This document shows positions 12,081-63,945 of a DNA stretch of 64,000 bases, in pieces; within the stretch, counting starts at the first letter, position 1; each line of letters starts with the position of its first letter. Below the pieces are notes generated by a model. It was given only the letters and a program-made list of their open reading frames with translations, did no database searches and had not been told where the DNA came from. The position numbers were made by a program, and so were the translations under genes. Location: positions 16,308-80,307 of the forward strand of contig MWCM01000001.1 in the NCBI GenBank assembly GCA_002070055.1, written 5' to 3'. The stretch is from a bacterium ADurb.Bin212 (GTDB taxonomy: Bacteria > Patescibacteriota > UBA1384 > XYA2-FULL-43-10).

Positions 12081-12330
12081 AACTCTCCAAATTTACTAAT
12101 TAATGTAACGGAGCATTGTAGCATGAATATTAGTAAATGTCAAGTAGCAAATATACAAATCTACTAAATTACAATTAATAATCAATATTAATATATTGTC
12201 ATCAAAATATGGAATATATTGGCAAAAAAGCCATAAAAGCTCAAAATATCAAAATATATTTAAGCAATAAATATTGACAACATATAGTAAAGGCTATACA
12301 ATTACATTAATTAATAATTTAAAAACTTTT

Positions 12331-13086
12331 ATGGACAGCGCAGAGATACTACAAAAATTAGATCTATCTCCTTCTGAAGCCAAGACTTACTTGGCTGTAC
12401 TTGGTGCTGGAGAAGCAAGGGTTTCTGAGGTCGGCAAATTGACAGGTGTAACCAGAATGGCAGGCTACACAGCGGCTGAGGAGTTAGTGAAGAAGGGCCT
12501 GCTTTCTTACGTTGATAAGCGTGGCAAGAAACGAGTAATGGCCGAGGATCCGGCGCGACTCGAGCTGATGTTACGAGAGAAGGAGCGGAGAGTGCGGGAT
12601 GAAGCAGAATCATTAAATGCAATTATGCCAGAGCTTCAAACCCTGTTTTCATCGAGCGATATTAAACCCAATGTGAGGGTATATTCAGGGACCGAGGGGA
12701 TTAAGACTTTGGCGGAAGATATCCTGAAAACACTCAAAAAAGGTGAGAGCTATGTTGGATATGGGGCGGTGACAAAGGAATTTGAAGAGTTAAGAGAATA
12801 TTTCCACGACTTTGTGCCGAGACGAGTCAAAAAAGAGATCAGCTTTCGTGGAATTGTGCCTGGTGATATAAACGATAATACAACAGAGAAGAACAAAGCT
12901 AAAAGACGCGAATTGCGCTATGTTTCAGTTGCCGAGTTTCCATTTAAAAATGAAATAAATATTTATGGTAATAAAATTTCGATTGAATCATTTAAAGACA
13001 AGATCGGTTTGATTATCGAGTCCAAGCAAATTGCCGATACTCAGAGAATGATATTCGAGTTGGCGTGGAGGGGAGCAGGAGAATAG
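12331..13086 (+). CDS. TrmB-family transcriptional regulator (paralog 3)
   Basis: wHTH (SEAKTYLAVLGAGEARVSEVGKLTGVTR) plus a C-terminal FPFKNEINIYGNKISI...IIESKQIADTQRMIFELAW nearly identical to the paralog-1 middle segment. Start at ATG 12331; the track ORF reads through a TTGACA promoter-like region. Confidence 0.65.
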   Translation: MDSAEILQKLDLSPSEAKTYLAVLGAGEARVSEVGKLTGVTRMAGYTAAEELVKKGLLSYVDKRGKKRVMAEDPARLELMLREKERRVRDEAESLNAIMPELQTLFSSSDIKPNVRVYSGTEGIKTLAEDILKTLKKGESYVGYGAVTKEFEELREYFHDFVPRRVKKEISFRGIVPGDINDNTTEKNKAKRRELRYVSVAEFPFKNEINIYGNKISIESFKDKIGLIIESKQIADTQRMIFELAWRGAGE

Positions 13087-20050: not shown

Positions 20051-20185
20051 TGATTATTTGATAAAATAGATTTTAGACCACAGAAGTTACATTCAGAAAA
20101 TTCAGGAGTATTGAATGAATGGTAGCAGAAAGAGGGTAGTAAGTGCTACGATAGTCTAACACCTAACACCTAACACCTATTATTT

Positions 20186-21610
20186 ATGTGCTTAACAATA
20201 CCGGGAAAAATTAAATCGATTAAAGACGGCGTGGCGACAGTCGAAAATGGTTCCAGAACCGAGCAGATTGAGCTTGGAGTAGTTTTTGATGCCAAAGTAG
20301 GGGATTGGGTGCTTTATGCCACAAATCGCGCCGTGAGACTGATAGATGAGCAGGAGGCGCGTGAGATTATTGAGCTTCTTGAAGATAATTATCAACCGGT
20401 GGATATTGCTTCTCTACCGTTGAGGTATAAAAAGATTGTTTATAAAGTGAGAAACACTGAGAAAAATCAAAATATCAATTTAAAATCAAAAAATATTATT
20501 AATAGCAATTTAACAATCCAGCAATTTAACAATATTCACAAGAGCGATCTCGAATATCTACTACAGTTGAGAGGTAAAAATAATCTTGAAGCCTTTTACA
20601 GTGAGGCTAATGTCTTGCGTAAGAACATAATTAAAGACTTCGTCTGCATACACGGCATTGTAGAATTTTCTAACTATTGCAAGAATTGCTGTCTTTATTG
20701 CGGTATAGGGAGCAAAGCTAAAATACGACGTTATCGTATGACTTCCGACGAAATATTCATGGCAGTCGAACAGGCGGTCGAATTTGATGGTTATAAATTG
20801 GTGGTTTTGCAAAGTGGAGAGGACGATTATTATAGCGATGACGAGCTCGTGTCATTGATAGATAGGATCAAAAAAGATTTAAGAGTTTTTGTCTTCATTT
20901 CGGTGGGAGAGCGGTCTAAAAACTTTTATAAAAGAGCATTCGAAGCGGGGGCAAGCGGCTCACTTTTTCGTTTTGAAACCTCGAATCCGGAGTTATATAG
21001 CCGAATGCATCCGAATCATGATTTACAAAGCAGACTCGAATCTATACAAATGCAAATCGAGATTGGATATTATTTGGCAAGTGGTGGTTTAATCGGCTTA
21101 CCAGGTCAGACTATCTCTGATATGGCAGATGATCTTTTGTTGGTGAAGAAACTTCGGATTCCAATGTTGTCGAGTGGACCCTGGATTCCAAGTTTGACTA
21201 GCCCGCTTGGAATAATAACCAATAACCAAGGCACAAGAAACAAACAAATTCCAAACGGTGTCATTGCGAGGGACGAAGCAATCTTTAACAATTTAGCAAT
21301 AAAACAATTTAGCAATAATGAAAAATTGCGTCTGACTCTTAACTATATCGCGGCGGCGCGCTTTTTAATGCCGGAGATCAAAATTCCTGTGACTACAGCT
21401 TTGGAAACATTAGACCAAGAGAGCGGACGACACAAAGCCTTGTTGGCCGGTGCCAACGCCTTAATGTTTAATATTACTCCGGAAAAATACCGAGGCGATT
21501 ATAATTTATACGATCATAAATATATAGAACGGGAGAAAGTTTGGCAAAAATACGGGCTCTTTAAAGGAGAGGAGAGTTACGAGATGCTAGAAGATAGGTT
21601 AAAGATCTAA
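20186..21610 (+). CDS. HypC/HupF-like N-terminal domain fused to a BioB/HydE/PylB-type radical SAM domain
   Basis: N-terminus MCLTIPGKIKSIKDGVATV...VGDWVL matches the HypC MCLxIP signature. Downstream, NYCKNCCLYCGIG is a CxxxCxxC motif in the C(K/R)NNCxYCG style of BioB/HydE/PylB, and GGLIGLPGQT is a family-like glycine motif. Contains two in-frame repeat-derived inserts (20506-20533; 21224-21318). Confidence 0.55.
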   Translation: MCLTIPGKIKSIKDGVATVENGSRTEQIELGVVFDAKVGDWVLYATNRAVRLIDEQEAREIIELLEDNYQPVDIASLPLRYKKIVYKVRNTEKNQNINLKSKNIINSNLTIQQFNNIHKSDLEYLLQLRGKNNLEAFYSEANVLRKNIIKDFVCIHGIVEFSNYCKNCCLYCGIGSKAKIRRYRMTSDEIFMAVEQAVEFDGYKLVVLQSGEDDYYSDDELVSLIDRIKKDLRVFVFISVGERSKNFYKRAFEAGASGSLFRFETSNPELYSRMHPNHDLQSRLESIQMQIEIGYYLASGGLIGLPGQTISDMADDLLLVKKLRIPMLSSGPWIPSLTSPLGIITNNQGTRNKQIPNGVIARDEAIFNNLAIKQFSNNEKLRLTLNYIAAARFLMPEIKIPVTTALETLDQESGRHKALLAGANALMFNITPEKYRGDYNLYDHKYIEREKVWQKYGLFKGEESYEMLEDRLKI

Positions 21611-25376: not shown

Positions 25377-26126
25377 ATGAAATATTACCAGATTTTTGAG
25401 AAATTTGGACTGGCAAAAAATGAAGCAATTATATACGAAACTCTGCTTAATGAGGGGGAGAGCAATGTGGCGAATATTTCTGTTAAGTCAAAAATACATC
25501 GCAGAAATGTTTACGATTCTTTAAATCGGCTCATTGAGAAAGGTCTAGTGTTCGAGATATTACAGAGCAGAGAAAACATATATAAAGCGGTGGATCCGGA
25601 TAAATTTTCGCAGATGTTGGCGGAAAAACAGAAAGAGTTAGATAAAATTATGCCCCAGCTTAAAAATATTTATCAAAATAAGCCTCATGCTCAGGAGGTT
25701 TATATTTACAAAGGCTTAGAGGGATACAAAAATTACATGAGAGACATTTTGCGACTAGGCCAAGACGATTATATTTTAGGGGGCAAAGGCCTTTGGGCGG
25801 ATCCTAAAATAATCAGTTACACCGAGCAGTTCATGAAAGAAGCTAAAAAGCTTGGCATCAAATTTCATATCATTTATGATGAAGAGGTAAAAAAATCTAA
25901 GCATAAAATTGCCTCTTTTATTGGCGGCAGCTATCGTTTTTTACCGGAGAAATACTTTACCAACTGTTCCATGGAGATATTTGCCGATAGGGTCGTGATT
26001 CTTTCTGATATAGGCAGACACGGCGAGATGGATGAGAATTCTGTCCACACGGTAATTATTAATCGACAGGTAGCGGATGCCATGAGAACTTGGTGGAAGG
26101 CACTGTGGGGCATTGCAAAAGAATAA
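25377..26126 (+). CDS. TrmB-family transcriptional regulator (paralog 4)
   Basis: wHTH (NEAIIYETLLNEGESNVANISVKSKIHRRNVYDSLNRLIEKGLV) and the same overall architecture as the other three paralogs. Confidence 0.6.
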   Translation: MKYYQIFEKFGLAKNEAIIYETLLNEGESNVANISVKSKIHRRNVYDSLNRLIEKGLVFEILQSRENIYKAVDPDKFSQMLAEKQKELDKIMPQLKNIYQNKPHAQEVYIYKGLEGYKNYMRDILRLGQDDYILGGKGLWADPKIISYTEQFMKEAKKLGIKFHIIYDEEVKKSKHKIASFIGGSYRFLPEKYFTNCSMEIFADRVVILSDIGRHGEMDENSVHTVIINRQVADAMRTWWKALWGIAKE

Positions 26127-41617: not shown

Positions 41618-43495
41618 ATGAAAAGAACTATTACAATCATTGCATCCTGCATTGTCTTATTAGTTGTGTCGGTCGTGATTATTAGGGCTGTTAACGGTAA
41701 TAAGCCCAAAGCAGACATCACAATGATGAATAATATGTGTAATTCGGCGATTGCCGGCGATTGCGCAATTGATTTAATAGTAGTAAATGTTGATAAGCCA
41801 GGTGGGTCTTCTGGCAGGGACGGCTATATTACCGCCTATAACAAAGATGGCAAAACGGTTGTTTCCAGTGCTGTGAAATTAGCTTCTGATACCTTTCAAC
41901 AAATCGGAGAACCGTCGCAATTCGCGGCTGGGAACGATATACAAATGACACCTTTGGGTGTTTATAGCACCGGTTCGGTCTGGGCTTCCTCGGTTAACGA
42001 TCCGGACGGCTATGTTCAGCATCCAAATATTTCCGACAATTCAGTTTTTGGCTCTTTATTTATTGAGTTATCTGGCATTCCTGTTGATGGAGGGTCACCA
42101 CTGTGTGGCCTTAACGACCCGAGTTCGGCAACCTGCCGACATATTGGGATTCATAGCGGTGCTAATCTTAACACGCCTACTCATGGTTGTATAAAGACAG
42201 AAAACGATGTTGTGAGAAAAATCGCCAAAAATCTGAATGGGGCTAAAGTTGTCGTGACAGATATTGAGTTAGCCGGTGACGCAGCCCCTGTTGATTTCGA
42301 AAGCTATGATCCAAATTTTTCAAGCCCTTTCAAAATTATCAAAAATGATTGGAATCCTTCTTTTTCTGTTTCTGCATTAGATGGCCAACCTCTAGGAAAA
42401 GTTCACGATTTTGGAAGATGGTGGATTGCCGAGGTGGCAAAACCGAGTGGTAGGTATGAAATTAAATCAAGTGCGGCTGGATATCAGACAGGGGAAACAG
42501 TAGCAAATTTTGTTAGAGAAACAGCTGCTGGCGGTACATTGGGTGCTTTTAAGGAGAAACTCGGAGGCACTAGTCTGGTGTTGGGATTGCCACTCATGGA
42601 TGGTAACTACTCGCGCTATTTCGGGTCTTTTTATCATAATGGTTACATTGAGGAGTTAAGGTTTAGTGCTTGGGATATCTCTTATACCAACCAATATTTG
42701 CCGGATGTTAGCACTGCAAAGATCATTCTACCGATTGCCAACTCTTATCCAAAGTGTCCGGCAAAAACTTCTTCCAATCAATACATGATGGGGGATCCGA
42801 ACTGTAATAAATCGTTAGTTAGTAGTTTTGCGATTTATGCAATAACTACACCTTGGCATGATCTGGGGTATGGTTCGAGAAACGGTTTAGAGGGAGGTTC
42901 TGGCAGGGAGATTGCAAGCTTTAGTTATGATTATACTAATCCGCAATCTTCCATAACTGTCACCGCCGACCTTTCTAAACTGACTGAATCTGAAAAGAAA
43001 GCCATGTATACATGGGGTATTGCAATCTCCCAGAAACAGAAAGTCAATCATAGTGTTAATGACTATTTGGTTATGATAGACACTCATCGAAATGATATTC
43101 ATGTCAATCAAGTTGATCCTTTTATTCAGCCTGAGCTTGATGGTGAAGAGGGAAATTCTCCCAACACTCAAATTGCGGCACCAGTCACAACTCCGTCTGC
43201 ACCGGCTCCTATACCAATTGAGGCTGCGCCAAACAATGTTAGCACTCCCGGCTTGTTTTTCGGGCCTGCCGTCACATCGCCATCTGCTTGGGACCCAATA
43301 AATATATTTAACACTGCTCCTATTCCTGTTCCTGTTAGCAATACATCGGCTTGGAATATTAATTATAATGGTGAATCATTTACTATTACCGCTGCGCAAC
43401 CAGTAAAATATCAGAGCCTCGTTGATTATCTTAATCCTGTTAAATGGTTTGCCCCTGAGCCACAGCCTGTTGGTTTATTTCAACCTCCCCTTTAA
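41618..43495 (+). CDS. L,D-transpeptidase (YkuD) domain-containing secreted protein
   Basis: N-terminal TM/signal, then IGIHSGANLNTPTHGCIKTEN matching the YkuD H...(S/T)HGC catalytic motif; long C-terminal extension of unknown function. Confidence 0.55.
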   Translation: MKRTITIIASCIVLLVVSVVIIRAVNGNKPKADITMMNNMCNSAIAGDCAIDLIVVNVDKPGGSSGRDGYITAYNKDGKTVVSSAVKLASDTFQQIGEPSQFAAGNDIQMTPLGVYSTGSVWASSVNDPDGYVQHPNISDNSVFGSLFIELSGIPVDGGSPLCGLNDPSSATCRHIGIHSGANLNTPTHGCIKTENDVVRKIAKNLNGAKVVVTDIELAGDAAPVDFESYDPNFSSPFKIIKNDWNPSFSVSALDGQPLGKVHDFGRWWIAEVAKPSGRYEIKSSAAGYQTGETVANFVRETAAGGTLGAFKEKLGGTSLVLGLPLMDGNYSRYFGSFYHNGYIEELRFSAWDISYTNQYLPDVSTAKIILPIANSYPKCPAKTSSNQYMMGDPNCNKSLVSSFAIYAITTPWHDLGYGSRNGLEGGSGREIASFSYDYTNPQSSITVTADLSKLTESEKKAMYTWGIAISQKQKVNHSVNDYLVMIDTHRNDIHVNQVDPFIQPELDGEEGNSPNTQIAAPVTTPSAPAPIPIEAAPNNVSTPGLFFGPAVTSPSAWDPINIFNTAPIPVPVSNTSAWNINYNGESFTITAAQPVKYQSLVDYLNPVKWFAPEPQPVGLFQPPL

Positions 43496-43803
43496 GAGAT
43501 TTCAATTTGGAATAGATATTATATCAAAGCAAAAAATGGTTCTTTGTATGCCATGACAACCTGTTATTATGGCTAAAATAGTGTATAGAAAATATCTATA
43601 AAAAGTTGGATATATTATGTCTGGTATTTGATAAAGTTTTTGTTAGATTATTATTATCCCACAATATGTCTTGACAAATACCCGGTATAGCAGTACAATG
43701 TTATAATCACTAAAAAAGTGATGGCACACAAAAAATCAAATACAATATTAGGTCTGGAGGGGCCAATAATAACAAGCTACTAGCTATTAGTTACTAGCTG
43801 TTA

Positions 43804-43838
43804 GAAAAAAAGCTTCTCCACACAGAGAAGCTTTTTTT
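43804..43838. terminator. bidirectional terminator hairpin (AAGCTTCTC..GAGAAGCTT flanked by A7 and T7)
   Basis: Perfect 9-bp stem with A and T tracts. Confidence 0.55.
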
Positions 43839-44411
43839 GCATGAGTGAGATGGGGCCAAGAGGCGGCCGCTCCCACCGCTTCTTACAGGAAGACAAAATA
43901 CTAATCGAAAAAATAAGTGATTATAAATTGTCTTCCTCCCAGCTCGTTCCTGCAAAAAAAATACTTAAGAGAAAACTTAAGAAAAAATATCAGTAAATAA
44001 AAAAAACAGTAAAAACAAACAAACTGAAAAAGAAAAAACTGATAAAAACACAGAAAATCAAAGAAATCGAAGAAAAAACCAGAAAAACAAGAAAAAAGCA
44101 CATTAAAAACAAAAAAAGCAGGAAACAAAACAAAAACGAGGGATATAAGTCAAAATATCTTTTGTTACCAAAATGGTAATAAGGGATACCACAAACGACT
44201 TAAAACGCCATTTATGGTACCCCTCATGGGTGTAATTTACGTCACCGGGCAATAATTTAAAATATATTTGTTCCCGATAAGCTGACAAATAAATTGCACC
44301 CAATCAAAAGAGTTCATCTTAGAGATGAGCTTTTTTGTTATATTTGCGGGACCATAAATATGTGATAATATGAAAAGTAAGATAAATCATACTAATATTA
44401 AGGAGTTCATA

Positions 44412-44651
44412 ATGAAAAAAATTGTTACAGAATTTTACGGCACTGGGACAGTTGGGGAGAGGGGGCAGATAGTAATTCCGGCGGAGGCACGTAGCAATAT
44501 GAAAATTAAATCAGGGGACAAGTTTGTCTTTATCGGCCACGGCTCGATACTTCACATTTTACCGGCTGACGCTATGGACAAGATTTTCTGCAAAATTCAT
44601 CAAAGCTTCGAAGAAGCGGTAGGAAAAACCAGAAAGGAACAAAATGATTAA
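44412..44651 (+). CDS. AbrB/MazE/SpoVT-family DNA-binding protein
   Basis: GTVGERGQIVIPAEARSNMKIKSGDKFVF is the swapped-hairpin AbrB-type domain. Start at ATG 44412 after an AAGGAG RBS. Overlaps the start of the downstream MFS gene. Confidence 0.65.
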   Translation: MKKIVTEFYGTGTVGERGQIVIPAEARSNMKIKSGDKFVFIGHGSILHILPADAMDKIFCKIHQSFEEAVGKTRKEQND

Positions 44652-46419
44652 TCAGAACAACCGCAAATGGTGGACACTAGGCACTGTCTGTTTTGCCCTA
44701 TTCATGATTTTACTTGATGGCAATGTAGTGAACTTGGCGATTCCCAAGATTATGCAAGGCTTTGGGGCGACTCTGCCACAAGTGGAGTGGATCAATAATG
44801 CATATTTGCTGTCATTTGCTATACTCCTTATTACTCTTGGTCGTTTGGGTGATACTTTTGGTCGTAAGCGCATGTTTTTGGGTGGGCTAGTGCTATTTAC
44901 TCTCGGTTCGGTTTTATGTGGTGCTGCTACAAGCGTGGATTGGCTGGTAGTTTTCCGCGTTGTCCAAGCAATCGGCGGAGCCGCCATGATGCCGGCCACC
45001 CTCTCTCTAATTTCGGCGAACTTCGCCAAAAAGGAACGAGGGACGGCTATGGGGATATGGGGTGCGGTTTCTGGCTTGGCAATAGTTCTTGGTCCAATTA
45101 TTGGAGGTTACCTTACTGATTCCGGACTTGGTACATATCTAAATAATCTACTGTATATGAACGAATTTTGGCGCTACGTATTCTACATTAATATCCCCGT
45201 TGGTATTATTGCTTTAGTTTTTGGTTTGTTGGTTATTAATGAATCCAAAGATCACGAAAAAAGGCACAGTTTTGATATCTTAGGCATAGTGCTGTCGGCC
45301 TCATCTTTGTTCCTGCTTACATTCGGCTTAATAGAGGGTTCAAAATTCGGCTGGTTTCGGGCCAAAGAGAATTTTTTGCTCGGTGGTTTCAAGTTGGCCA
45401 TTGGAGATATCGGGGCAATCCCGATTATATTTGCTCTCTCGGCAATTTTGATGGTTTGGTTCGTCTGGCATGAATCAAGGGTTAAACATGACCCGCTTAT
45501 GGATCTGAAGTTATTTCGTAGTCGAAACTTCTCGGTTGGCAACATCTCCGGCTCTGTATTAAATTTTGCCATGATGGGCTCATTTTTCTTGCTGCCCTTG
45601 TTTTTGCAGTCAATACTTGGCTACTCTGCAATTAAAACCGGTCAAGTTTTAGTGCCTTTAGCCATAACCATCATGTTTTCAGCGCCGGTTGCTGGCAAAA
45701 TCTCTGATAAATATGGGGCTAAATATATCGTAATGGCCGGAATGATATTAATGTCATTAGGTGGATTCTATCTGGCACATTTTCGTTTAGATACTACCAC
45801 TAAAGAGCTGATTTTGCCCTTTATTGTAATGGGCTTGGGCATGGGATTGTCGCTTTCACCACTTACTAACATTACTTTATACGATGCTCCAGAGGATGAG
45901 GTGGGTGGCGCATCCGGCGTGTTTTCAACCACACGCCAAATCGGCTCGGTTATGGGTATAGCAATTCTTGGAGCCGTATTACAAACAACAATGCTGGCCA
46001 AAACTGATGCTCACATTAATAACTTGAGCTCCTTAAGCCCAAGCAGTAAACAGCTGGTAACAGAAACCATAAACGACAGTGATTTCAGTTTTAGCGATGC
46101 TAAGTCTCAAGAGCTTTTATCGAACAAATTGAGAGAACAGATGATTTCAGAAGCTAAAACATCTGCCTCTGCTGCTGCCGCTGCGGTTACTCCACAACAG
46201 TTAGCTGATCCTGCTTTTGCCGCGGCTTTTACTAAAAAACAAGCTCAAATCCAGCAGTCAATGATTGAGCAGATGAAACAAGCGGGGCAAGATGTCGCTA
46301 CTGCCGGCAAGCAGGGATTTGTTGATAGCGTTAATTATACTTTTAACATTGCCGCCATTATTGCTCTATTCGGGGCTATAACTACTTTATTATTCAGTAA
46401 CAATCGAGCGAAGAACTAG
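44644..46419 (+). CDS. MFS transporter, DHA2 (14-TM) drug-efflux type
   Basis: 591 aa with about 14 TM helices, motif A-like LGRLGDTFGRKRMFL, and motif C-like GPIIGGYL. Confidence 0.75.
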   Translation: MINQNNRKWWTLGTVCFALFMILLDGNVVNLAIPKIMQGFGATLPQVEWINNAYLLSFAILLITLGRLGDTFGRKRMFLGGLVLFTLGSVLCGAATSVDWLVVFRVVQAIGGAAMMPATLSLISANFAKKERGTAMGIWGAVSGLAIVLGPIIGGYLTDSGLGTYLNNLLYMNEFWRYVFYINIPVGIIALVFGLLVINESKDHEKRHSFDILGIVLSASSLFLLTFGLIEGSKFGWFRAKENFLLGGFKLAIGDIGAIPIIFALSAILMVWFVWHESRVKHDPLMDLKLFRSRNFSVGNISGSVLNFAMMGSFFLLPLFLQSILGYSAIKTGQVLVPLAITIMFSAPVAGKISDKYGAKYIVMAGMILMSLGGFYLAHFRLDTTTKELILPFIVMGLGMGLSLSPLTNITLYDAPEDEVGGASGVFSTTRQIGSVMGIAILGAVLQTTMLAKTDAHINNLSSLSPSSKQLVTETINDSDFSFSDAKSQELLSNKLREQMISEAKTSASAAAAAVTPQQLADPAFAAAFTKKQAQIQQSMIEQMKQAGQDVATAGKQGFVDSVNYTFNIAAIIALFGAITTLLFSNNRAKN

Positions 46420-46440
46420 CTTTATTAGAGCTTCTTATTT

Positions 46441-46465
46441 AGCCCTGGCTTTGCCAGGGCTTTTT
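46441..46465 (+). terminator. rho-independent terminator (AGCCCTGGC-TTTG-CCAGGGCT plus T5)
   Basis: Perfect 8-bp GC-rich stem and a T-run after the MFS gene. Confidence 0.65.
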
Positions 46466-46540
46466 GGAATTATTAGGGGTTGACAAGCTTAAATAATGGG
46501 TATATATTCATAATATAAGCATTAAATAATTTGAGAGGAG

Positions 46541-46810
46541 GTGATAAATATGCCAAGATATGATGGAACTGGCCCAATGGGTACTGGTCCAATGACCGGT
46601 CGCGGAATGGGCCCATGCGGCGGTGGCGCTAGCTGGGGCAGAGGTTTCGGTCGAGGCAGAGGATTGGGCATGGGTTACGGCGAACGCTTTGCTGGCAGGT
46701 GCTATCTGACTGCTCGCGAAGAGCTAGATTCTTTAAAGGAAGAAGCAGTTGTAATGGAAGCTGATCTCAAGGCTCTAAAAGAGCAAATTTCCGAAATGGA
46801 AGCTAAATAA
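46541..46810 (+). CDS. small Gly-rich protein with a C-terminal coiled coil (resembles the DUF5320 family)
   Basis: MPRYDGTGPMGTGPMTGRGMGPCGGG then a coiled coil (EELDSLKEEAVVMEADLKALKEQISEMEAK); recalled resemblance only. TTGACA promoter upstream. Confidence 0.45.
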   Translation: MINMPRYDGTGPMGTGPMTGRGMGPCGGGASWGRGFGRGRGLGMGYGERFAGRCYLTAREELDSLKEEAVVMEADLKALKEQISEMEAK

Positions 46811-46894
46811 AAAGCCGTCCTGACGCGTTGGAAATTCCTTCGCGTCGGGACGACCCGCACTTTATTAATATCACAGTTGAGTTAAAATATAAAT

Positions 46895-47185
46895 ATGAAA
46901 TATGGTCATCGCAAGCGTTTTTGTATTGGACACCGCCCATCGGTGAGTTTTTATAAACCCAAGGGTATACCGATGCGAAATTTGGAGGTAGTCGATTTAA
47001 GCCATGAGGAGCTAGAATCCCTAAGGTTAAAAAATGTTTTAAAACTAGACCAGGTTAACTCTGCAAAAATGATGAATACCTCACAGAGCACTTTCCAGAG
47101 AATATTGTCTTCGGCATACAAAAAGGTTTCGTTGGCCTTGGTGGAAGGTAAAGCTTTAAAAATAAATTTACACGAAGACGAGTAG
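46895..47185 (+). CDS. DUF134/UPF0251-family predicted DNA-binding protein
   Basis: FYKPKGIPMRNLEVVDLSHEELESLRLKNVLKLDQVNSAKMMNTSQSTFQRIL matches the DUF134 pattern (FKP.G.....LE.V.L..EE.EALRL.D...L.QEEAA..M.VSR.TF.RIL). Confidence 0.6.
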   Translation: MKYGHRKRFCIGHRPSVSFYKPKGIPMRNLEVVDLSHEELESLRLKNVLKLDQVNSAKMMNTSQSTFQRILSSAYKKVSLALVEGKALKINLHEDE

Positions 47186-52669: not shown

Positions 52670-53794
52670 ATGAATAAACTTGTTTTAATAGACGGTAATG
52701 CTATCATTCACAGGGCCTACCACAGCATGCCAAAAACACTAAGCACACGCAAAGGAGAGCAGACAAATGCCATCTATGGCTTTGCCATCACTCTAATAAA
52801 GGTGCTTGAAGATTTAAAGCCGCAATATTTAGCGGCGACTTTTGATTTGGCTGGGCCGACTTTTCGCCATGAGGTTTTTGAGGAGTATAAGGCCACCAGG
52901 GTAAAGGCCGATCAGGAGCTTTATGATCAAATTCCTCGCGTAAAGCAGTTGGTGGAGACAATGGGCATACCGATATATGAGAAAGATGGTTTCGAAGCGG
53001 ATGATGTGATTGGAACGATTGTGGAAATAATTCAAAAATCAAAAATCAAAAATCAAAAGTACAATTCAAAAGTAAAAAATAAAAAATTTATTTCAAGTGA
53101 AACGAAGGAGCCTAATACTTTAGCAATAGAACAATTTAACAATTTAACAATATATATAGTAAGTGGGGACAAAGACATTTTTCAACTCATAAACGGCAAT
53201 GTCAAAGTGTATAATCTTAAAAAAGGATTGAGTCAGACGCAAATTGTTGATACTGAGGTAATCCAAAATGAATATAATTTACAGCCATCAGATTTTATCG
53301 ATTTGAAGGCTTTGGCGGGTGACCCAAGTGATAATATCCCAGGGGTGCCTGGGATTGGACCAAAGACAGCTACAGAATTGATACAAAGATTTGATACTTT
53401 GGAAAAGATTTATGAGAATATCACTAAATTGCTCAATTGCCCAATTGCTGATTTAAACAATTTAACAATACAACAATTTAACAATGAAACGATCGAAGTG
53501 GTTGCCAAGGAGCTTGGCCTTAAGCCTAGGGTTGTGAAACTGTTGATTGACAATAAGGAGCAAGCCTTTCTTTCTCAGCATCTTGCTACAATTCACAAAG
53601 ATGTTCCAATTGATTTTGATCTGGATAAGTGCAAGTGGGGAATGTATGATAAAAGTAAATTGAGCCAGTTGTTTGAAGAATTGGGCTTTCAATCACTCCT
53701 TCGAAGATTTGCCAACAACGCAACGGAAGAACAAAAAAAACAAGAGCAAAGAAGCGAGGCGCAAAAAAAAGATGAGCAATTAAAACTACTATGA
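52670..53794 (+). CDS. polA: DNA polymerase I, 5'-3' exonuclease (FEN-like) part
   Basis: LVLIDGNAIIHRAYHS...GFEADDVIGT...SGDKDIFQL...PGVPGIGPKTA are the 53EXO motifs. Ends at TGA 53792-53794, 1 nt before the ATG of the polymerase ORF, in a different frame. Carries about 35 aa of repeat-derived insert (53040-53151). Confidence 0.8.
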   Translation: MNKLVLIDGNAIIHRAYHSMPKTLSTRKGEQTNAIYGFAITLIKVLEDLKPQYLAATFDLAGPTFRHEVFEEYKATRVKADQELYDQIPRVKQLVETMGIPIYEKDGFEADDVIGTIVEIIQKSKIKNQKYNSKVKNKKFISSETKEPNTLAIEQFNNLTIYIVSGDKDIFQLINGNVKVYNLKKGLSQTQIVDTEVIQNEYNLQPSDFIDLKALAGDPSDNIPGVPGIGPKTATELIQRFDTLEKIYENITKLLNCPIADLNNLTIQQFNNETIEVVAKELGLKPRVVKLLIDNKEQAFLSQHLATIHKDVPIDFDLDKCKWGMYDKSKLSQLFEELGFQSLLRRFANNATEEQKKQEQRSEAQKKDEQLKLL

Positions 53795-53795
53795 T

Positions 53796-55136
53796 ATGTG
53801 GAGCCATCTAAAAGGTAAATCAATAATTGTACCGCAGATCAGCTCGGATGAGATTTCAAAACAGCTTGAGCCGGTTTTGCGTGAAATGGAAAAGGTAGGG
53901 ATTAGGCTGGATGTTCATGAATTCTCTAAGCTGGAGAAAAAGCTAACTGCTGATAGCTTAAATCTGAAAGCTCATGTCCTTGAACTTGCCGGAGAGGACT
54001 TCAATATTGATTCACCTTCACAAATGGCCGCAGTTTTATTTGATAAACTAAAACTTCCTACTGAAGGGTTAAAACGTACCAAAAGCGGGCCATCCACGGC
54101 GGCGAGTGAACTTAATAAAATCAAAGATAAGCATTCAATAATCGCGCCAATCCTTGAATACCGCGAGCTAGCAAAATTGCTATCAACATATCTAACTACC
54201 CTGCCTAAAATGGTGGATAAAAATTCACGACTTCACACTCACTATGCTCAGGATGTAGCTACTGGCCGTATTTCGTCCAATGACCCGAATCTGCAAAATA
54301 TTCCCATAAAAGGCCGATATGGAGAGGAGATCCGTAGATCTTTTGTGGCCTCGCCTGGCAATGTGCTAATCTCTGCCGATTATTCTCAAATAGAGCTACG
54401 TATTGTGGCTTGTTTGGCAGAGGACAAGGAGATGATTAAATCATTTAACTCTGGTCGTGATATCCACAGTGAAACTGCGGCTGACATATTCAAAAAAGAT
54501 TCTTCGCAGGTGACGAGTGACGAGCGTCGATTTGCCAAAACCATCAATTTTGGCGTTCTTTACGGTATGAGCCCATACGGCCTGTCACAAGCATTAAATA
54601 TCGGAGTTGATTCGGCTGCAGAATATATTAGACGATATAACGAGGTTTACTCTGGTATAAGCGCTTATTGCAAGAGAATGATTACTGAGGCGAAAGAAAA
54701 AGGCTATGTGGAGACTCTTTTTGGCTATCGCCGAGTTTTACCCAATATCAACTCCAACAATCGCTACTTAGCTGAGGCCGAAGAGCGCATGGCAATAAAT
54801 ACACCGGTGCAGGGGACTGCAGCGGAGATTTTAAAGCTCTCGATGCTGGATCTAGATCGAGAGTTCAATAACCAAGGTACAAGAAACAAGATACAAACAA
54901 ATTCAAAAATAAATATTCAAAATTCCAAAAAACTATCACCTAACATCTATAACCTAAAACCTGTAAAAGCTCAGCTTTTACTCACTGTCCACGATGAGCT
55001 GGTGGTGGAAGCGCCGGAGGCGGAGGCTGGGGAAGTAGCTAAGGTAGTCAAAGTAACAATGGAAAATGTTATCAAACTATGTGTGCCAATTGAGGTAGAG
55101 GTTGGAATTGGAAAAAACTGGGCTGAGTCAAAATAA
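53796..55136 (+). CDS. polA: DNA polymerase I, polymerase (family A) domain part; no 3'-5' exonuclease domain
   Basis: Family-A motifs RRSFVASPGNVLISADYSQIELRI (motif A), RRFAKTINFGVLYG (motif B) and LLLTVHDELVVE (motif C). Carries a roughly 30-aa in-frame repeat insert (54868-54960). Confidence 0.85.
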   Translation: MWSHLKGKSIIVPQISSDEISKQLEPVLREMEKVGIRLDVHEFSKLEKKLTADSLNLKAHVLELAGEDFNIDSPSQMAAVLFDKLKLPTEGLKRTKSGPSTAASELNKIKDKHSIIAPILEYRELAKLLSTYLTTLPKMVDKNSRLHTHYAQDVATGRISSNDPNLQNIPIKGRYGEEIRRSFVASPGNVLISADYSQIELRIVACLAEDKEMIKSFNSGRDIHSETAADIFKKDSSQVTSDERRFAKTINFGVLYGMSPYGLSQALNIGVDSAAEYIRRYNEVYSGISAYCKRMITEAKEKGYVETLFGYRRVLPNINSNNRYLAEAEERMAINTPVQGTAAEILKLSMLDLDREFNNQGTRNKIQTNSKINIQNSKKLSPNIYNLKPVKAQLLLTVHDELVVEAPEAEAGEVAKVVKVTMENVIKLCVPIEVEVGIGKNWAESK

Positions 55137-55159
55137 CAATTAATTACACTGCTTATAAA

Positions 55160-55192
55160 AAACGACAGCCGCCCGGGTGGGGGCGGCTTTGG
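55160..55192. terminator. bidirectional terminator hairpin (AGCCGCCC-GGGTGG-GGGCGGCT)
   Basis: 8-bp GC stem with an A-run before and a T-run after, between polA and the minus-strand island ORF. Confidence 0.55.
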
Positions 55193-59071: not shown

Positions 59072-59318
59072 AATTTGTTACACTTAAATTTAAAATTTAA
59101 AATTTAAAATTTAAAAAGCTATTAAATCAAAAATTCTAAATTATAAAAGCCAACTGTAACAGGAATAAAATAGCACATATATTGACAGGCGTCAACAAAG
59201 TGGCTATATTGAAGGGCCTTGACAATAGGTGGTAGGCGTTAGGAATTAGCTTCTTAGGATCAGTTTTGAAATTATTTTGCTAAAAAGCTAACAAGCTAAT
59301 ACCTAAAAGCTGACATAT

Positions 59319-60491
59319 ATGGAACTTTCACCAAAACAACAAGTTGTAGAGAGGGTTCGCGAAGCGGAAAAGATTCTCATTACCACTCATAAAAATCCTG
59401 ATGGTGATGCGATTGGTGCTACTCTGGCTCTTTTGCTATTCCTCAAAAAGATGGGCAAAAAAGTCACGGCTGTTACCGAGGACATGGCTCCGGATGTGTT
59501 TAACTATTTACCTTCTTTTAACGAGGTAAGCCAGAATTTCGCAGGTGCCAGAGATTTTGTGATCTCAGTTGATATTTCTAAAGTAAAAGCTGACAAAATA
59601 ATGTATAAAGTGTTGGACGACAAGCTCAACATAATTATTACACCCAAAAATGGCCAATTTAAGGACTCGATGGTCTCTTATCCGGCCGGTAGTTTTAATT
59701 ACGACCTGATTATTGTGCTGGATTCGCCGGATTTGGAACGGATGGGTGTTATATATGACAAAAATCCCGATGTCTTTTTTGAGACGCCTGTTATTAATAT
59801 TGATCATCATGCCGGCAACGATCATTTCGGCCAAGTGAATTTAGTTGATTTAACTGCTACTTCTACCTCCGAGATTTTAGTTTCAATTTTGGAGGCTCTG
59901 TCACCGGAGAAATCTCCGTTTAACGAGGACATTGCAACCTGTCTGCTCACCGGCATTATCACCGATACTGGTTCTTTCCAAAATGCCAACACTACACCAA
60001 AATCTTTGACTGTTTCAGCGCAAATGGTGGCGGCAGGTGCCAGAAGAGATGAGATTATTAAAAGAGTTTATAAAACCAGATCTCTTTCCACTCTTCGCCT
60101 ATGGGGTAGGGCACTGGTTAATATACACGATGAAAAAGCGGATGGTTTTGTTTGGAGCTCGTTGTCAAAAAACGATTTTGTTCAAGTTAGCGCCAATGAA
60201 AATGAATCTGGTGGGGTAATAGACGAGCTATTAAAAACTGTTTCCGGAGCAGAATTTGTACTACTTTTGTCGGAAAAAGCAGGCGGCGTTTCCGGATCTC
60301 TGCGGGCGGTTGAGAAGGGGATGGATGTATCTAAAATTGCCAAAATTTTTGGCGGAGGCGGACACGCCATGGCGGCAGGTTTTGAGATCAACAATACTAC
60401 GCTCGAGGAATCAAGCCCAATGATTATCCAGCGTATTAAAGAGAATAGACAATTGCCAAACGGACAGTTTATAGTAGAAGAAGGGGAATAG
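59319..60491 (+). CDS. DHH-family phosphoesterase (NrnA-like oligoribonuclease/pAp phosphatase)
   Basis: HKNPDGDAIGATLAL (DHH motif I), NIDHHAGND (motif III), and a DHHA1-like C-terminus with GGGGHAMAAG. Confidence 0.75.
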   Translation: MELSPKQQVVERVREAEKILITTHKNPDGDAIGATLALLLFLKKMGKKVTAVTEDMAPDVFNYLPSFNEVSQNFAGARDFVISVDISKVKADKIMYKVLDDKLNIIITPKNGQFKDSMVSYPAGSFNYDLIIVLDSPDLERMGVIYDKNPDVFFETPVINIDHHAGNDHFGQVNLVDLTATSTSEILVSILEALSPEKSPFNEDIATCLLTGIITDTGSFQNANTTPKSLTVSAQMVAAGARRDEIIKRVYKTRSLSTLRLWGRALVNIHDEKADGFVWSSLSKNDFVQVSANENESGGVIDELLKTVSGAEFVLLLSEKAGGVSGSLRAVEKGMDVSKIAKIFGGGGHAMAAGFEINNTTLEESSPMIIQRIKENRQLPNGQFIVEEGE

Positions 60492-60643
60492 TCACAGAAA
60501 TGGTTCACTGAATACTACAGAAAATGTTTTCAATATCTGTGTAAATCTGTGAACAAAATCTGTGGCAGTGCTCACATAACATATCTCTTGTTTCGTGGGT
60601 TGTACCATCGCACCATACACCAACGAATGCAGGAGGTAGCCAT

Positions 60644-60889
60644 ATGCCTTTGCCGAAAGTCGAAAATGGCCAGAAAGTTAGCCTTGAGGTCTTTGGTTGG
60701 GGGGATAACCGCAAGGTGACGGCCAAGGTCGAGTCGTTCGATGACGACCACATCTATATCAAGGACATCATGTCCAACCCCGCGCCGCCTTCTGATCGGG
60801 CGGTTGTCACCTACAGCTCAAGCCACGCGAGCTGTGTGATGTGCTGGAATAAGCAGGGGGTGGCAAACCAACTCTGCGAGTTCAAGTAA
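60644..60889 (+). CDS. hypothetical 81-aa protein (GC-rich island)
   Basis: GCAGGAGG RBS; about 57 % GC; Cys pair CVMC near the C-terminus; no recognisable family. Confidence 0.4.
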   Translation: MPLPKVENGQKVSLEVFGWGDNRKVTAKVESFDDDHIYIKDIMSNPAPPSDRAVVTYSSSHASCVMCWNKQGVANQLCEFK

Positions 60890-61155
60890 GGTGCAACATC
60901 CCACGGCACTGTGGTCCGCCCATCTTAGGGCGGCCCTTGCCATATGAGCAAAAAAGAGGTAATATACAGAGGCAACAAGAAGCCACGTTTTTGGTTCTTG
61001 TGTTGTCAATTTTATAGTTAATTTTAAATAGGGAGAGACCAGCGCAAGGAAATTGTGGAGAGCACCACCACAGATCTTTTTCACCGATCGACACAGATCC
61101 GTGGAAATCTGTAAAAGTGAACACATTTTTTCTTTGCCTGCTGGCCACAGTTATT

Positions 61156-61440
61156 ATGACAAAAGAAGAGAAAAGCACAAAAAAGCAGGCTAAAACTGAC
61201 CTGATAGAAAAGTACAAGTCGCACAAAGAGGACACCGGCTCAACAGAGGTGCAAATTGCTGTGATGACCAAAAAGATCTCTGATCTAACCAAGCATTTGA
61301 AAGAGCACAAAAAAGACTTTGATTCCCGCAGAGGTCTTTTAATGATGGTTGGCAAAAGAAGAAGATTGTTAAACTACCTAAAAAAGACAGACGAAGCCAA
61401 GTATGCTCAGCTTATTGCTGACCTTGGTTTGAGAAAATAA
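61156..61440 (+). CDS. rpsO: 30S ribosomal protein S15
   Basis: [50 protein letters not shown] is canonical S15. Start moved to ATG 61156. Confidence 0.85.
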
Positions 61441-61461
61441 AATTTTTTCAAAAAAATTACA

Positions 61462-61592
61462 ATAAACAAGAAACAAGATACAAACAAATTCCAAATGTCA
61501 ATTTTCAAGAGTTCAAAAGTAGTGTTATTTGTAATCTGATTGTTGAGTATTGAATATTGTTTGATTATTGTTTCTTGTGTCTTGTTTATTTA
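61462..61592. mobile_element. MITE-like palindromic repeat element (about 130 bp) with imperfect terminal inverted repeats
   Basis: Left arm aataaacaagaaacaagatacaaacaa (61462-61488) versus the reverse complement of the right arm aataaacaagacacaagaaacaa (61570-61592). Partial copies sit inside coding regions at 21224-21262 and 54868-54905. Confidence 0.55.
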
Positions 61593-61782
61593 TTTAAAAT
61601 TGACAGTTTGCAAGTGAGGCCAGGCAAGAAAACGTAATTTTGAGAACACCACCACAGAACCTGCTCGCAGATTAAAACTGATCTGTGAAAATCAGTGAAG
61701 AAAATCTGTGGAAGTGCGCTCACTATTATTACTTCTTGCTTTGCCTTAGAACTCTAAATGCAAATTTGTCAGAAAGGAAAGC

Positions 61783-63945
61783 ATGGCTGTACTTAAAGAG
61801 TACAAAACAACCACTTATGAAGTGGATTATTGTGGTAAAAAATTAACCCTTGAGACGGGTCGTTTGGCTGGTCAGGCGCAAGGTTCTATTACAGCTCGTT
61901 TGGGAGATACTGTTGTTTTAGCAACTGCTGTGGTCTCTGATGAACCAAGAGAGGGTATGGATTATTTCCCACTACTTGTTGACTTCGAGGAGCGTTTTTA
62001 TGCTGCAGGAAAGATATCGGGATCCAGATTTATTAAAAGAGAGGGAAGGCCAAGCGATGAGGCTATTTTGGCTGCCCGAAAGATCGATCGCCCCATTAGG
62101 CCACTTTTTCCTAAGAATTTTCGTAACGACGTTCAGGTTGTAGTAACGGTTTTGTCTTACGATGGCGAGAATGATCCGGATCCAATTGCCATAATTGCCG
62201 CATCTAGTGCGCTAATGCAAACCCATGCCCCATACAAAGGGCCGATTTCTGCTGTAAATATCTCTCTTGTTGACGGTGTAATTAAACTTAACCCTACAAT
62301 GGACGAACTGGAAGCCAGTGACTTACATGTTTGTCTGGCCGCTACAAAAGATCGGGTCATGATGCTGGAAGTCGAGGCCAACGAGGTTAAAGAAGAGGTA
62401 GTAATTGAGGGCATAGAGAAGGCGTTAATAGAGCTTAAGCCAATTATCGAGATTCAACATAAGATCGCCGAAGATCATCGTAAACAGGAAGTAGAAGAGG
62501 GGGAGAAGCCGGTTGATCCAAGTATTGCGGTAAAAGCAGAGGTTCACAACTATGTGGCCGATAAATTAAGAACCGCCTTAGCTGAACTGGACAAAGAGGA
62601 GAGAGATAAGCAGATTAAAATCTTTGAAAAGGAGATCTTAGATCGTTTTGAGGGCACCTATAAGCAGGTTGATTTAAAATCGGCATTTGCTAAGCTGGTA
62701 TTCGAAGAAGTTCGCGCCCAGATTCTCGAAAATGGCATACGCCCCGATGGTCGTGGTATCGAGGAAATTAGGCCTTTGCATGTCGAAACAAGCGTTTTGC
62801 CTAGGACTCATGGTAGTGCATTATTTGCCAGAGGCGAGTCCCAATCGTTAAGTGTTGTAACTCTGGCCAGCCCTGGCATGGAACAGCTCATTGATACAAT
62901 GGGAGAGGAGACCACCAAACGCTTTATGCATCATTACAATTTTCCTCCTTTTTCGACGGGCGAGGTATCGCCGATGCGAGGCACCTCCAGGCGTGAGATT
63001 GGTCATGGCTACTTGGCAGAAAAAGCGCTTAAACCCATGATCCCGGAAAACGGCGGTTTTCCATATACTATTCGTATTGTCTCAGAGATTCTTTCCTCAA
63101 ACGGCTCAACTTCTATGGCGGCAACCTGTGGTTCAACTTTGGCATTAATGGATGCCGGTGTGCCAATTAAAAAGCCTGTTTCCGGTATCGCTATGGGTTT
63201 GGTCGCAAACGCTGATGCAAGTGAATATAAGATATTAAGCGATCTACAAGGCTTGGAAGACTTTGCTGGTGACATGGATTTTAAAGTTGCCGGGACCAAA
63301 GATGGTATAACTGCTGTCCAAATGGATACCAAGATCGAAGGTTTGACAATGGAAATAGTTAAAGAAACTTTCCGAAGAGCTCTAAGCGGCCGCTTAGAGA
63401 TTATGGACGCCATGCTCTCAGTTATTCCTGAGCCCAGAGCCGAGCTATCAAAATATGCTCCTCGCATTGAGGCAGTTCAGATTAATCCGGAGAAGATTGG
63501 CGAAATTATCGGGCCCGGAGGAAAAAATATTCGCAAGATCATCGAAGAGTGCGGCGGTAAGGATGTTTTGGCAATTGACATAGAGGAAGATGGCACAGTT
63601 ATGATATCGGCTATGGATCCGGTAGCCGGAGAAAAAGCAATTGCCATGGTAAAAAGCATGACTCGCGAAATTAAACCGGGTGAGATTATCACAGGCGAAA
63701 TAATTGAGATTAAACGCGACAGAATGAGTGGTAAAGAAATAGGTGCTATTATGGCTATCACTCCGAAATTAGATGGCATGATTCATGTTTCACAAATCGC
63801 CAACCGTCACGTAGAAAAAGTTTCCGATGTGCTCAAAGTCGGACAAACCGTGACTGCAAAAGTTATTGAAGTTGACCCGATGAAGGGTAGAATTTCCCTT
63901 TCAATGAAGGCTGCTGCCGAATCAAGTAATCCGGATAAAGCTTAA
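61783..63945 (+). CDS. pnp: polynucleotide phosphorylase
   Basis: 720 aa with two RNase PH domains (FPLLVDFEERFYAAGKI; ETGEVSPMRGTSRREIGHG), a KH domain (IGEIIGPGGKNIRKI) and a C-terminal S1 domain. Confidence 0.9.
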   Translation: MAVLKEYKTTTYEVDYCGKKLTLETGRLAGQAQGSITARLGDTVVLATAVVSDEPREGMDYFPLLVDFEERFYAAGKISGSRFIKREGRPSDEAILAARKIDRPIRPLFPKNFRNDVQVVVTVLSYDGENDPDPIAIIAASSALMQTHAPYKGPISAVNISLVDGVIKLNPTMDELEASDLHVCLAATKDRVMMLEVEANEVKEEVVIEGIEKALIELKPIIEIQHKIAEDHRKQEVEEGEKPVDPSIAVKAEVHNYVADKLRTALAELDKEERDKQIKIFEKEILDRFEGTYKQVDLKSAFAKLVFEEVRAQILENGIRPDGRGIEEIRPLHVETSVLPRTHGSALFARGESQSLSVVTLASPGMEQLIDTMGEETTKRFMHHYNFPPFSTGEVSPMRGTSRREIGHGYLAEKALKPMIPENGGFPYTIRIVSEILSSNGSTSMAATCGSTLALMDAGVPIKKPVSGIAMGLVANADASEYKILSDLQGLEDFAGDMDFKVAGTKDGITAVQMDTKIEGLTMEIVKETFRRALSGRLEIMDAMLSVIPEPRAELSKYAPRIEAVQINPEKIGEIIGPGGKNIRKIIEECGGKDVLAIDIEEDGTVMISAMDPVAGEKAIAMVKSMTREIKPGEIITGEIIEIKRDRMSGKEIGAIMAITPKLDGMIHVSQIANRHVEKVSDVLKVGQTVTAKVIEVDPMKGRISLSMKAAAESSNPDKA

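Follow-up and report, generated by a model that had tools for sequence, protein, structure and literature searches.

The stretch of DNA analysed here (the window) comprises 64,000 nucleotides of the bacterium ADurb.Bin212, a member of the Patescibacteriota known from a metagenome-assembled genome, with anaerobic-digester metagenomes as its source (assembly GCA_002070055.1, contig MWCM01000001.1, positions 16,308 to 80,307, forward strand). Between rpsO and pnp it carries an imperfect palindrome of about 155 bp, at 61445-61599, and part of this sequence recurs in frame within two open reading frames (ORFs), one encoding the polymerase domain of PolA and the other a HypC-HydE protein whose radical SAM part is HydE-like. 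The copies and the inserts that contain them are as follows.

61445..61599, no strand assigned: full but decayed palindromic copy of the repeat family, its left arm A-rich and its right arm T-rich (inverted repeat, RNA fold, nhmmer matches to both arms)
61453..61517, plus strand: A-rich arm (A-arm) of the spacer copy, CAATAAACAAGAAACAAGATACAAACAAATTCCAAATG... (nhmmer E 1.2e-12; lag-7 identity 0.60)
61552..61590, minus strand (nhmmer 61590-61552): T-rich arm (T-arm) of the spacer copy, reverse complement AATAAACAAGACACAAGAAACAATAATCAAACAATATTC (nhmmer E 3e-4; lag-7 identity 0.59)
54862..54928, plus strand: in-frame A-arm copy in the polA polymerase-domain ORF (53796-55136), encoding NNQGTRNKIQTNSKINIQNSK, residues 358-378, bases 54867-54929 (nhmmer E 1.3e-11; 1 mismatch in 27 nt)
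54930..54965, plus strand: second, older PolA loop module, KLSPNIYNLKPV, with heptamers of the form CTAnnAn, outside the repeat family (a KLxxxxYxLK-type segment stands there in many homologues)
21211..21255, plus strand: in-frame A-arm fragment in the HypC-HydE ORF (20186-21610), encoding NNQGTRNKQIPN, residues 346-357, a variant with one heptamer fewer (blastn 45 nt, 84%; nhmmer 21220-21255, E 2e-4)
21212..21325, plus strand: whole composite HydE insert, residues 343-380, made up of the A-arm fragment, the small palindrome GTCATTGCGAGGGACGAAGCAATC (VIARDEAI) and two units of the 16-nt repeat AACAATTTAGCAATAA (NNLAIKQFSNN) (structure alignment; Tandem Repeats Finder (TRF) rows 21214, 21284 and 21287)

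The palindrome begins 5 nt past the rpsO stop codon and is followed by TTTATTTATTT. Its arms (61445-61501 and 61543-61599, 57 nt each) are 72% complementary, and the 16-nt stretches labelled "outermost" (61468-61483 and 61575-61590) reach 88%. RNA folding of this spacer copy gave z-scores of -2.35 and -3.4. A sequence-only reading of the same DNA had placed an inverted-repeat element of ~130 bp between rpsO and pnp; the palindrome is indeed present, and its extent is bigger than that reading had proposed. In both arms TRF detected tandem units, (ACAAGAA)x3.6 at 61459-61483 and (TTGTTTC)x2.9 at 61568-61587, which are heterogeneous and stand in a fixed order.

The resemblance between the spacer arm and the two ORFs was assessed in several ways. 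The 27-mer AACAAGAAACAAGATACAAACAAATTC of the spacer arm was found again at 54878-54904 in polA with 1 mismatch, and none of 100 dinucleotide-preserving shuffles gave at least two matches of this 27-mer. Sensitive blastn against the spacer arm aligned 53 nt of polA at 85% identity and 45 nt of the HydE-like region at 84%. When a nhmmer profile of 78 arms, all taken from other genomes, was run over the window, exactly four places were returned, namely the left and right arms of the spacer copy, polA and HypC-HydE, with E-values between 1.2e-12 and 3e-4. The earlier observation that the left arm recurs in both ORFs therefore holds under proper alignment statistics, which had been named as its possible refutation, and the shuffles and profile E-values rule out chance or low-complexity similarity. 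Both ORFs read the repeat as NNQGTRNK, in agreement with the in-frame reading NQGTRNK(Q/I) proposed earlier, but downstream of this octapeptide the frames differ: the HydE copy is without one heptamer (GATACAA) and continues with QIPNG where PolA has IQTNSK. Because the HydE copy changes frame after the missing heptamer, the similarity of the two ORFs lies at the DNA level and not in the peptide.

We then located the two inserts by structure and homologue alignments. Residues 2-362 of the PolA query correspond to Klentaq 123-483 and residues 387-446 to Klentaq 478-537, with the insert just ahead of motif C; in the AlphaFold2 model a long helix precedes it and the strand of motif C comes after it. 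The model has a mean pLDDT of 87, and its sole segment below 50 is residues 360-388, the insert, as would be expected for a flexible loop. The A-arm segment is missing from Taq, Bst and Klenow, and from PolA homologues of 414-425 aa in the candidate phyla radiation (CPR). Peptides of the insert include EFNNQGTR, IQTNSK, INIQNSK and LSPNIYNLKPVK, and the whole insert has a 7- and 14-nt periodicity. The ~30 additional PolA residues that had been ascribed to the element are real when compared with solved structures, but only ~21 of them (358-378) come from the repeat; the remainder is the KLSPNIYNLKPV module, whose KLxxxxYxLK-type segment is also present in P0010, a homologue without the A-arm.

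The radical SAM part of the HypC-HydE protein aligns with HydE in two blocks (query 123-342 with HydE 20-238, query 381-448 with HydE 245-311), leaving ~32 extra residues between HydE positions 238 and 245, and HydE homologues of 422-426 aa are without the insert. Within the insert region the protein contains the peptide NKQIPNGVIAR. Thus both inserts occupy loop positions that are lacking in the canonical enzymes, as had been stated earlier for PolA, and in the shortest CPR homologues. Alignment of 60-80 CPR homologues further revealed that both sites are hot spots for variable inserts, holding 0 to ~100 residues of unrelated low-complexity sequence, and that the same loops hold different heptamer arrays in different lineages. 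The host genes had been described as essential; the HydE-like maturase in particular need not be.

Two smaller repeats were seen within the HydE insert. The small palindrome GTCATTGCGAGGGACGAAGCAATC, at 21257-21283, is read GVIARDEAI, and HydE homologues carry the seemingly related segments VIAKNEAIS or CHSERSDNGVEESY at the same hot spot, which, judged from the peptides, may be the same DNA in other frames. A repeat with an 8/16-nt period (AACAATTTAGCAATAA) is the third in the window, occurring at 20506-20533, 21284-21318, 53119-53151 and 53451-53485; the HypC-HydE ORF and the 5'-3' exonuclease ORF each contain it twice, read in frame as NNLTIQQFNN or NNLAIKQFSNN.

In addition, we compared the polA copy with those of relatives. 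The window PolA is 100% identical to a protein of bacterium ADurb.Bin212, and the next relatives belong to Patescibacteria and Berkelbacteria. The arm is also found in the L119 PolA (72% protein identity), where it occupies the same site and frame and is shortened by a 21-nt deletion. Over the 26 aligned insert codons, the two genes share a nucleotide identity of 0.87 and a third-position identity of 0.885, compared to 0.68 and 0.41, respectively, in the rest of the gene. The insert is the best 26-codon window of the whole polA, and amino-acid identity there is no higher. The polA copy is thus conserved at the DNA level far more than protein selection would give, and the third-position excess points to homogenisation with other copies, recent re-acquisition or a constraint on the nucleic acid. 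The insert is present in independent assemblies, P0001 (on two contigs), L111 and L119.

The closest related contig, L111 (Logan contig DRR381268_13004), is a mosaic relative to window positions 42181-47178 and 53600-55188, in which blocks of 98.5-100% identity lie beside blocks of ~80%. A switch point falls inside polA, of which the 3' 440 nt are identical to the window; the mosaic reflects either recent strain recombination or a chimeric assembly, and since its insert region matches the window at 100% identity it is of no use for dating the polA insert. In the window, the 5'-3' exonuclease and the polymerase of polA are encoded by two separate ORFs (52670-55136) that lie one base apart. The polymerase ORF can be aligned only from Klentaq residue 123 onwards, most of the 3'-5' exonuclease-like domain thus being missing. 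In relatives (L112/L113, L115, L116, L120), 1-3 unrelated ORFs separate the polA halves, in L120 a PDDEXK_3 protein.

We searched species-representative genomes with a core pattern of the family (ACAAGAAACAA, a gap of 0-7 nt, then ACAAATTCMAA; 22-29 nt in total) and obtained matches at 110 loci. The gap is 7 nt in 79 of these, 0 nt in 14 and of other length in 17, with the filler nearly always an NNNNCAA heptamer; this distribution is non-random, because chance matches would be even over gap lengths. The zero-gap variant, to which the HydE copy belongs, is accordingly the second commonest type in the family. The hosts include many Patescibacteria classes as well as Omnitrophota, Margulisiibacteriota and Acidobacteriota; the contigs with Acidobacteriota copies are 0.4-3 Mb long, with 57-58% GC at those loci that were checked. 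A few matches in Clostridia, Flavobacteriales and similar taxa have odd gap lengths and are chance-like. The exact 33-nt consensus was found at eight further loci in metagenome contigs, including more perfect hairpins. In the family, the arms consist of degenerate heptamers (CCAAGAT ACAAGAA ACAAGAT ACAAACA AATTCCA ...). The ORF copies had been regarded as fragments of the spacer element; they are better described as members of this large family, which extends over several phyla.

The family occurs in a hairpin form and an ORF form. Of the 110 loci, 43-44 (~40%) are palindromic, with a median length of 150 nt, and nearly all of these hairpin copies are in short intergenic spacers, often occupying the entire spacer. 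Some hairpin copies are almost perfect, with a variable centre; those on Acidobacteriota contigs of 57% GC and megabase length fold at -96 to -105 kcal/mol. Nesting with a second palindrome family (GTCATCCCGG...) also occurs, and either of the two may come first. The genes flanking 37 intergenic copies are co-directional in 30 cases, convergent in 4 and divergent in 3, against a background of 79/10/11%; since gene orientation around the intergenic copies equals this background, a general terminator role of the family is not indicated.

By a simple flank test, 33 of the 110 loci (~30%) lie inside long ORFs, of which 28 were inspected further. By our count ~22 are clear cases, once chance-like matches from unrelated taxa are subtracted along with copies in GC-rich genomes whose open frame is doubtful. 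All 28 have the A-rich strand as sense, mostly with a single arm. All three frames are used, with the readings TRNKIQTNSK, (I/K)QETRYKQIPN and YKKQDTNKFQ, and the peptide derived from the A-arm is polar and rich in N, Q, K and T. Judged by eye from conserved flanking peptides, the hosts appear to include RecG, LeuRS, LigA, GatB, UvrC, TrmD, PheT and the PolA 5'-3' exonuclease. Three membrane proteins keep the entire palindrome, with the T-arm read as the hydrophobic segment LYLVSCFLYLV. A-arms have 1.75 of 3 sense frames open, compared to 0.68 in shuffles, indicating stop avoidance.

The arms are strongly periodic at 7 nt. Base identity at lag 7 is 0.58-0.60 in the family arms, both spacer arms and the whole PolA insert, against a background of ~0.35, and copies differ from each other by indels of 7 or 21 nt. 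No repeat class in the window exceeds expectation as strongly as period-7 tandem arrays do, with 15 rows found compared to 1.65 expected from order-3 Markov simulations (~9x). One example, (CTAACAC)x3.4 at 20156-20179, lies just upstream of where HypC-HydE starts; another is (AAATTTA)x4.4 at 59086-59116. An imperfect (TCAAAAA)x8 array at 53032-53087, in ORF 52670-53794, is translated within the 5'-3' exonuclease (IQKSKIKNQKYNSK...), at the site where the Saccharibacteria homologue L074 has the family in frame; by Pfam, the N-terminal and SAM-fold domains of this exonuclease are each split by ~30-40 extra residues.

From these results we consider it likely that the spacer sequence is an old copy, by now partly decayed, of a large AT-rich palindromic repeat family of ~150 nt, and that the family behaves as selfish or dispersed DNA of the kind represented by Rickettsia palindromic elements (RPEs) and REPINs. 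Its mobility we infer from its distribution and its conservation at the DNA level. Copies would spread or become homogenised through a DNA-level process, for which trans-mobilisation by a hairpin-recognising enzyme and/or ectopic gene conversion between copies are candidates. Replication slippage would alter heptamer number and thereby produce length variation, and selection would retain only those ORF insertions that are in frame, stop-free and encode hydrophilic loops; such filtering would explain why ORF copies are sense-only and one-armed. Within ORFs, the T-rich arm would persist only at places that tolerate a hydrophobic segment, for example in membrane proteins.

A bolder version of this reading, which we put forward tentatively and hold to be rather doubtful, is that one heptamer-periodic hairpin family crossed phyla, from Patescibacteria to Omnitrophota, Margulisiibacteriota and Acidobacteriota, has been kept uniform in its DNA even in essential genes through gene conversion or a hairpin- or heptamer-specific mobilising enzyme, and is a main source of lineage-specific loops and some transmembrane segments in CPR proteins. 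If true, an RPE-like process would operate over a large part of the bacterial tree, by a mechanism (one-armed, sense-only, with 7-nt stepping) unlike any described transposon.

Several observations weigh against a dispersed repeat family as the source of the spacer palindrome and the inserts. Only 3 loci are present in the 64-kb window, and the source genome is outside the species representatives scanned, none of the 110 loci matching the window. With a z-score of -2.35, the spacer copy folds only moderately well, and it is unlike the classical intrinsic-terminator consensus. ORF copies are one-armed, unlike the expectation for insertion of a whole palindrome. Among 17 well-paired copies no consistent target-site duplication was found and the ends were ragged, in what is a weak test without a nucleotide-level pair of filled and empty sites. 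No arm pair encloses a gene at any of the 110 loci, distant pairs being neighbouring hairpins, and Pfam detected no transposase or RAYT domain in the 45 window ORFs. A scan of viral contigs gave two chance-like matches only (5-nt gap). An autonomous parent element, sought as an inverted arm pair around an ORF, and phage as the vehicle were accordingly set aside. The sequence-only reading had likewise recognised a dispersed palindromic repeat with pieces translated in frame in polA and the HydE-like gene, and this part of it stands; its label of a MITE (miniature inverted-repeat transposable element) is unproven, because neither a target-site duplication nor a partner transposase was found and the ends are ragged.

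We also examined the operon in which the spacer copy resides. The neighbouring features are the following.

61156..61440, plus strand: rpsO, for ribosomal protein S15, which lies directly upstream of the spacer copy (Pfam Ribosomal_S15, E 1e-35; ATG at 61156 supported by relatives)
61600..61775, plus strand: pnp leader hairpin with basal stem GAGGCCAGGCAAGA.../...TCTTGCTTTGCCT and, at its apex (61617-61746), a different palindromic repeat, CACCACCACAGA...TCTGTGG (fold -64.6 kcal/mol, z -6.26)
61783..63945, plus strand: pnp (polynucleotide phosphorylase), the downstream gene (Pfam RNase_PH, PNPase, KH and S1 domains)

In each of the four genomes that share this gene order (the window, L113, L116 and L120), a significant hairpin stands right after rpsO (z -2.9 to -5.2), and the sequences of these hairpins are unrelated among the four. 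The basal stem of the pnp leader is kept in L113, and its apex is small and without a repeat element in L116, belongs to the CACCACCACAGA family in the window and L120, and is an A/T-type palindrome in L113. Since both the apex and the post-rpsO sequences vary between genomes, palindromic repeats thus settle in the hairpins of this operon and turn over there. The CACCACCACAGA...TCTGTGG palindromes lie at 60527-60598, 60988-61115 and 61617-61746 in the window, and they also form the apex of a conserved rpsO leader stem.

The spacer copy probably also serves as the rpsO 3' hairpin; having taken this position, it would most likely act as an attenuator or 3'-end protector in a read-through rpsO-pnp transcript. 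No intrinsic terminator (a short GC-rich stem-loop with a T-run) was detected at 61441-61610 by a consensus scan, and the scan found no promoter-like site for pnp after the spacer element, so that classical terminator or promoter signals are not found at the element; the long AU-rich hairpin with TTTATTTATTT may be an atypical terminator. In E. coli, pnp is preceded by an autoregulatory leader hairpin that is cleaved by RNase III, and the window pnp leader appears to resemble this RNase III-controlled leader. A search of Rfam returned only tRNAs for the window at gathering score and nothing meaningful at E<=1 in 60400-61900, and no model matched the pnp leader at 61600-61775. The well-paired copies L065, L081 and L094 matched only generic long-hairpin miRNA models far below threshold, and L056 had no match. 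A known RNA family was thus rejected for the window and the well-paired copies, at gathering and relaxed Rfam thresholds alike.

We considered whether the arms arose in place, by growth of heptanucleotide microsatellites through slippage at A-rich tracts or hairpins, in which case their resemblance would be that of convergent low-complexity DNA. Such local slippage would fit the strong 7-nt periodicity of the arms and the whole PolA insert, the 7- or 21-nt indels between copies, the excess of period-7 arrays in the window, the lack of a target-site duplication or transposase, the one-armed ORF copies and the different heptamer arrays found in the same loops in different lineages. However, what the copies share is a specific, non-repeating order of different heptamers over ~45 nt, exact over 29-33 nt at >80 loci in unrelated genes and several phyla, including 57%-GC genomes in which A/T-rich slippage is not expected, and no shuffle reproduced the match within the window. 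We therefore regard local slippage as an unlikely origin of the family; it probably accounts for variation within copies, not for the identity shared between them.

Somewhat less likely still, in our judgement, is that the palindrome is primarily a functional RNA of the rpsO-pnp operon, acting as rpsO terminator, 3' stabiliser or element of pnp autoregulation, and that its resemblance to the ORF inserts is secondary. Its start 5 nt past the rpsO stop, the TTTATTTATTT that follows, the significant hairpin at the same place in four of four genomes, a pnp without a promoter-like site after the element, which fits read-through, and the very stable neighbouring pnp leader, with its possible likeness to that of E. 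coli, all speak for such a function. Yet relatives have unrelated hairpin sequences at this site, and what is conserved is thus not the sequence itself; the scan showed no GC-rich stem with T-run, no Rfam family matched, and the copies in ORFs and in other genomes would be left unexplained. An RNA role is compatible with a dispersed repeat family as a co-opted role of this copy, not as a replacement for that explanation. Very improbable is the last alternative, namely that the shared segments are a conserved peptide module under protein selection or an assembly artefact at repeats. Both window ORFs do read NNQGTRNK in the same frame and the 72%-identical PolA homologue has the same segment, but the same DNA is read in three frames across genomes, the window ORFs part in frame after a 7-nt indel, the third-position identity of the polA insert is unlike the outcome of protein selection, and the shortest homologues are without the segment; frame usage and third-position conservation together rule out a conserved peptide domain. 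An assembly artefact is contradicted by the presence of the insert in independent assemblies (P0001, L111 and L119).

We next compared the family with the closest known systems. In Rickettsia conorii, 44 in-frame gene insertions of RPEs were described (Ogata et al. 2000, as summarised in PMC10969869). RPEs and the present family share palindromic structure, a length of ~100-150 bp and many copies, and members of both are found in spacers and in frame in unrelated housekeeping genes, where they add surface segments that are seemingly compatible with the fold (for RPEs, according to the summary in PMC10969869); in the window this applies to PolA and HydE. As far as that summary goes, RPE families are reported from Rickettsia, whereas the family described here spans many Patescibacteria classes and three further phyla, its ORF copies usually have one arm with the A-rich strand always sense, and its arms are 7-nt periodic. 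The analogy concerns how the family works and does not extend to membership among RPEs. Its hairpin copies resemble REPINs in being inverted doublets in extragenic space that are non-autonomous, cluster and nest, and have no obvious target duplication (PMC3116915). REPs, however, are short, usually GC-rich, extragenic and linked to a RAYT in each genome (PMC3116915), while the arms here are 50-60 nt long and AT-rich, ~30% of the copies are intragenic and no RAYT is encoded among the 45 ORFs of the window. MITEs are likewise small, AT-rich and present in many copies, with terminal inverted repeats and no coding capacity of their own (review PMC10969869). In this respect the 57-nt arms on a short non-coding element (about 50-500 bp) conform to a MITE, but for the family neither a target-site duplication nor defined termini nor a related full-length IS with matching ends was found.

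Heptamer-based repeats offer a further comparison. Elhai and colleagues, in 2008, reportedly observed small dispersed repeats of Nostoc nested in hairpins and heptamer arrays. Heptanucleotide tandem repeats are also established in cyanobacteria (STRR) and, as TAACTGA repeats, in Beggiatoaceae (PMC4679880). Both here and in these genomes there is an excess of 7-nt arrays, and small repeats nest in hairpins and adjoin heptamer arrays; but STRR-type repeats are mostly perfect, direct and intergenic, whereas the heptamers here are degenerate, form an ordered arm of ~45 nt, are palindromic and are often translated. PARCELs, too, are coding DNA with dyad symmetry that is patchy over distant taxa and contributes to membrane proteins, yet they consist of 25-residue protein repeats in tandem, within ORFs whose function is unknown, are not single loop insertions in conserved enzymes, and have no intergenic hairpin form. 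The family differs from RPEs, REPINs and MITEs alike in its cross-phylum spread, one-armed and sense-only ORF copies, heptamer architecture and third-position conservation.

Full-text searches, in which not all journals were covered, returned no description of the sequence, or of MITEs or palindromic repeats in Patescibacteria (CPR). Selfish palindromes translated in housekeeping genes are, to our knowledge, textbook knowledge only for Rickettsia. The same phenomenon would now extend to the CPR, as one recognisable sequence family over several phyla, and would trace many unexplained insertions in CPR proteins to a concrete origin at the DNA level. For annotation, such segments inflate 'hypothetical' peptides and confuse homology searches, and in quality control of metagenome-assembled genomes the repeats can break or chimerise assemblies. 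In evolutionary terms they would represent a route by which disordered loops and hydrophobic segments form de novo. Specific clues to an undescribed mechanism of propagation or homogenisation are the stepping in units of 7 nt, the single arms that are read in sense only, and the conservation of third positions.

Finally, some further features of the window were recorded. The spacer that precedes ORF 44370-44651 contains a long A-rich low-complexity tract (43950-44140), with periods of 9-16 (e.g. TAAAAAAAAAAAACAG x4.4). This tract has weak blastn similarity to the A-arm of the spacer copy and does not match the family profile. A TrmB-type winged-helix N-terminal domain is present in four ORFs (553-1737, 9412-10185, 12274-13086 and 25377-26126), in one of them fused to NUDIX, and ORF 7148-7513 encodes a member of the '23S rRNA-intervening sequence protein' family.

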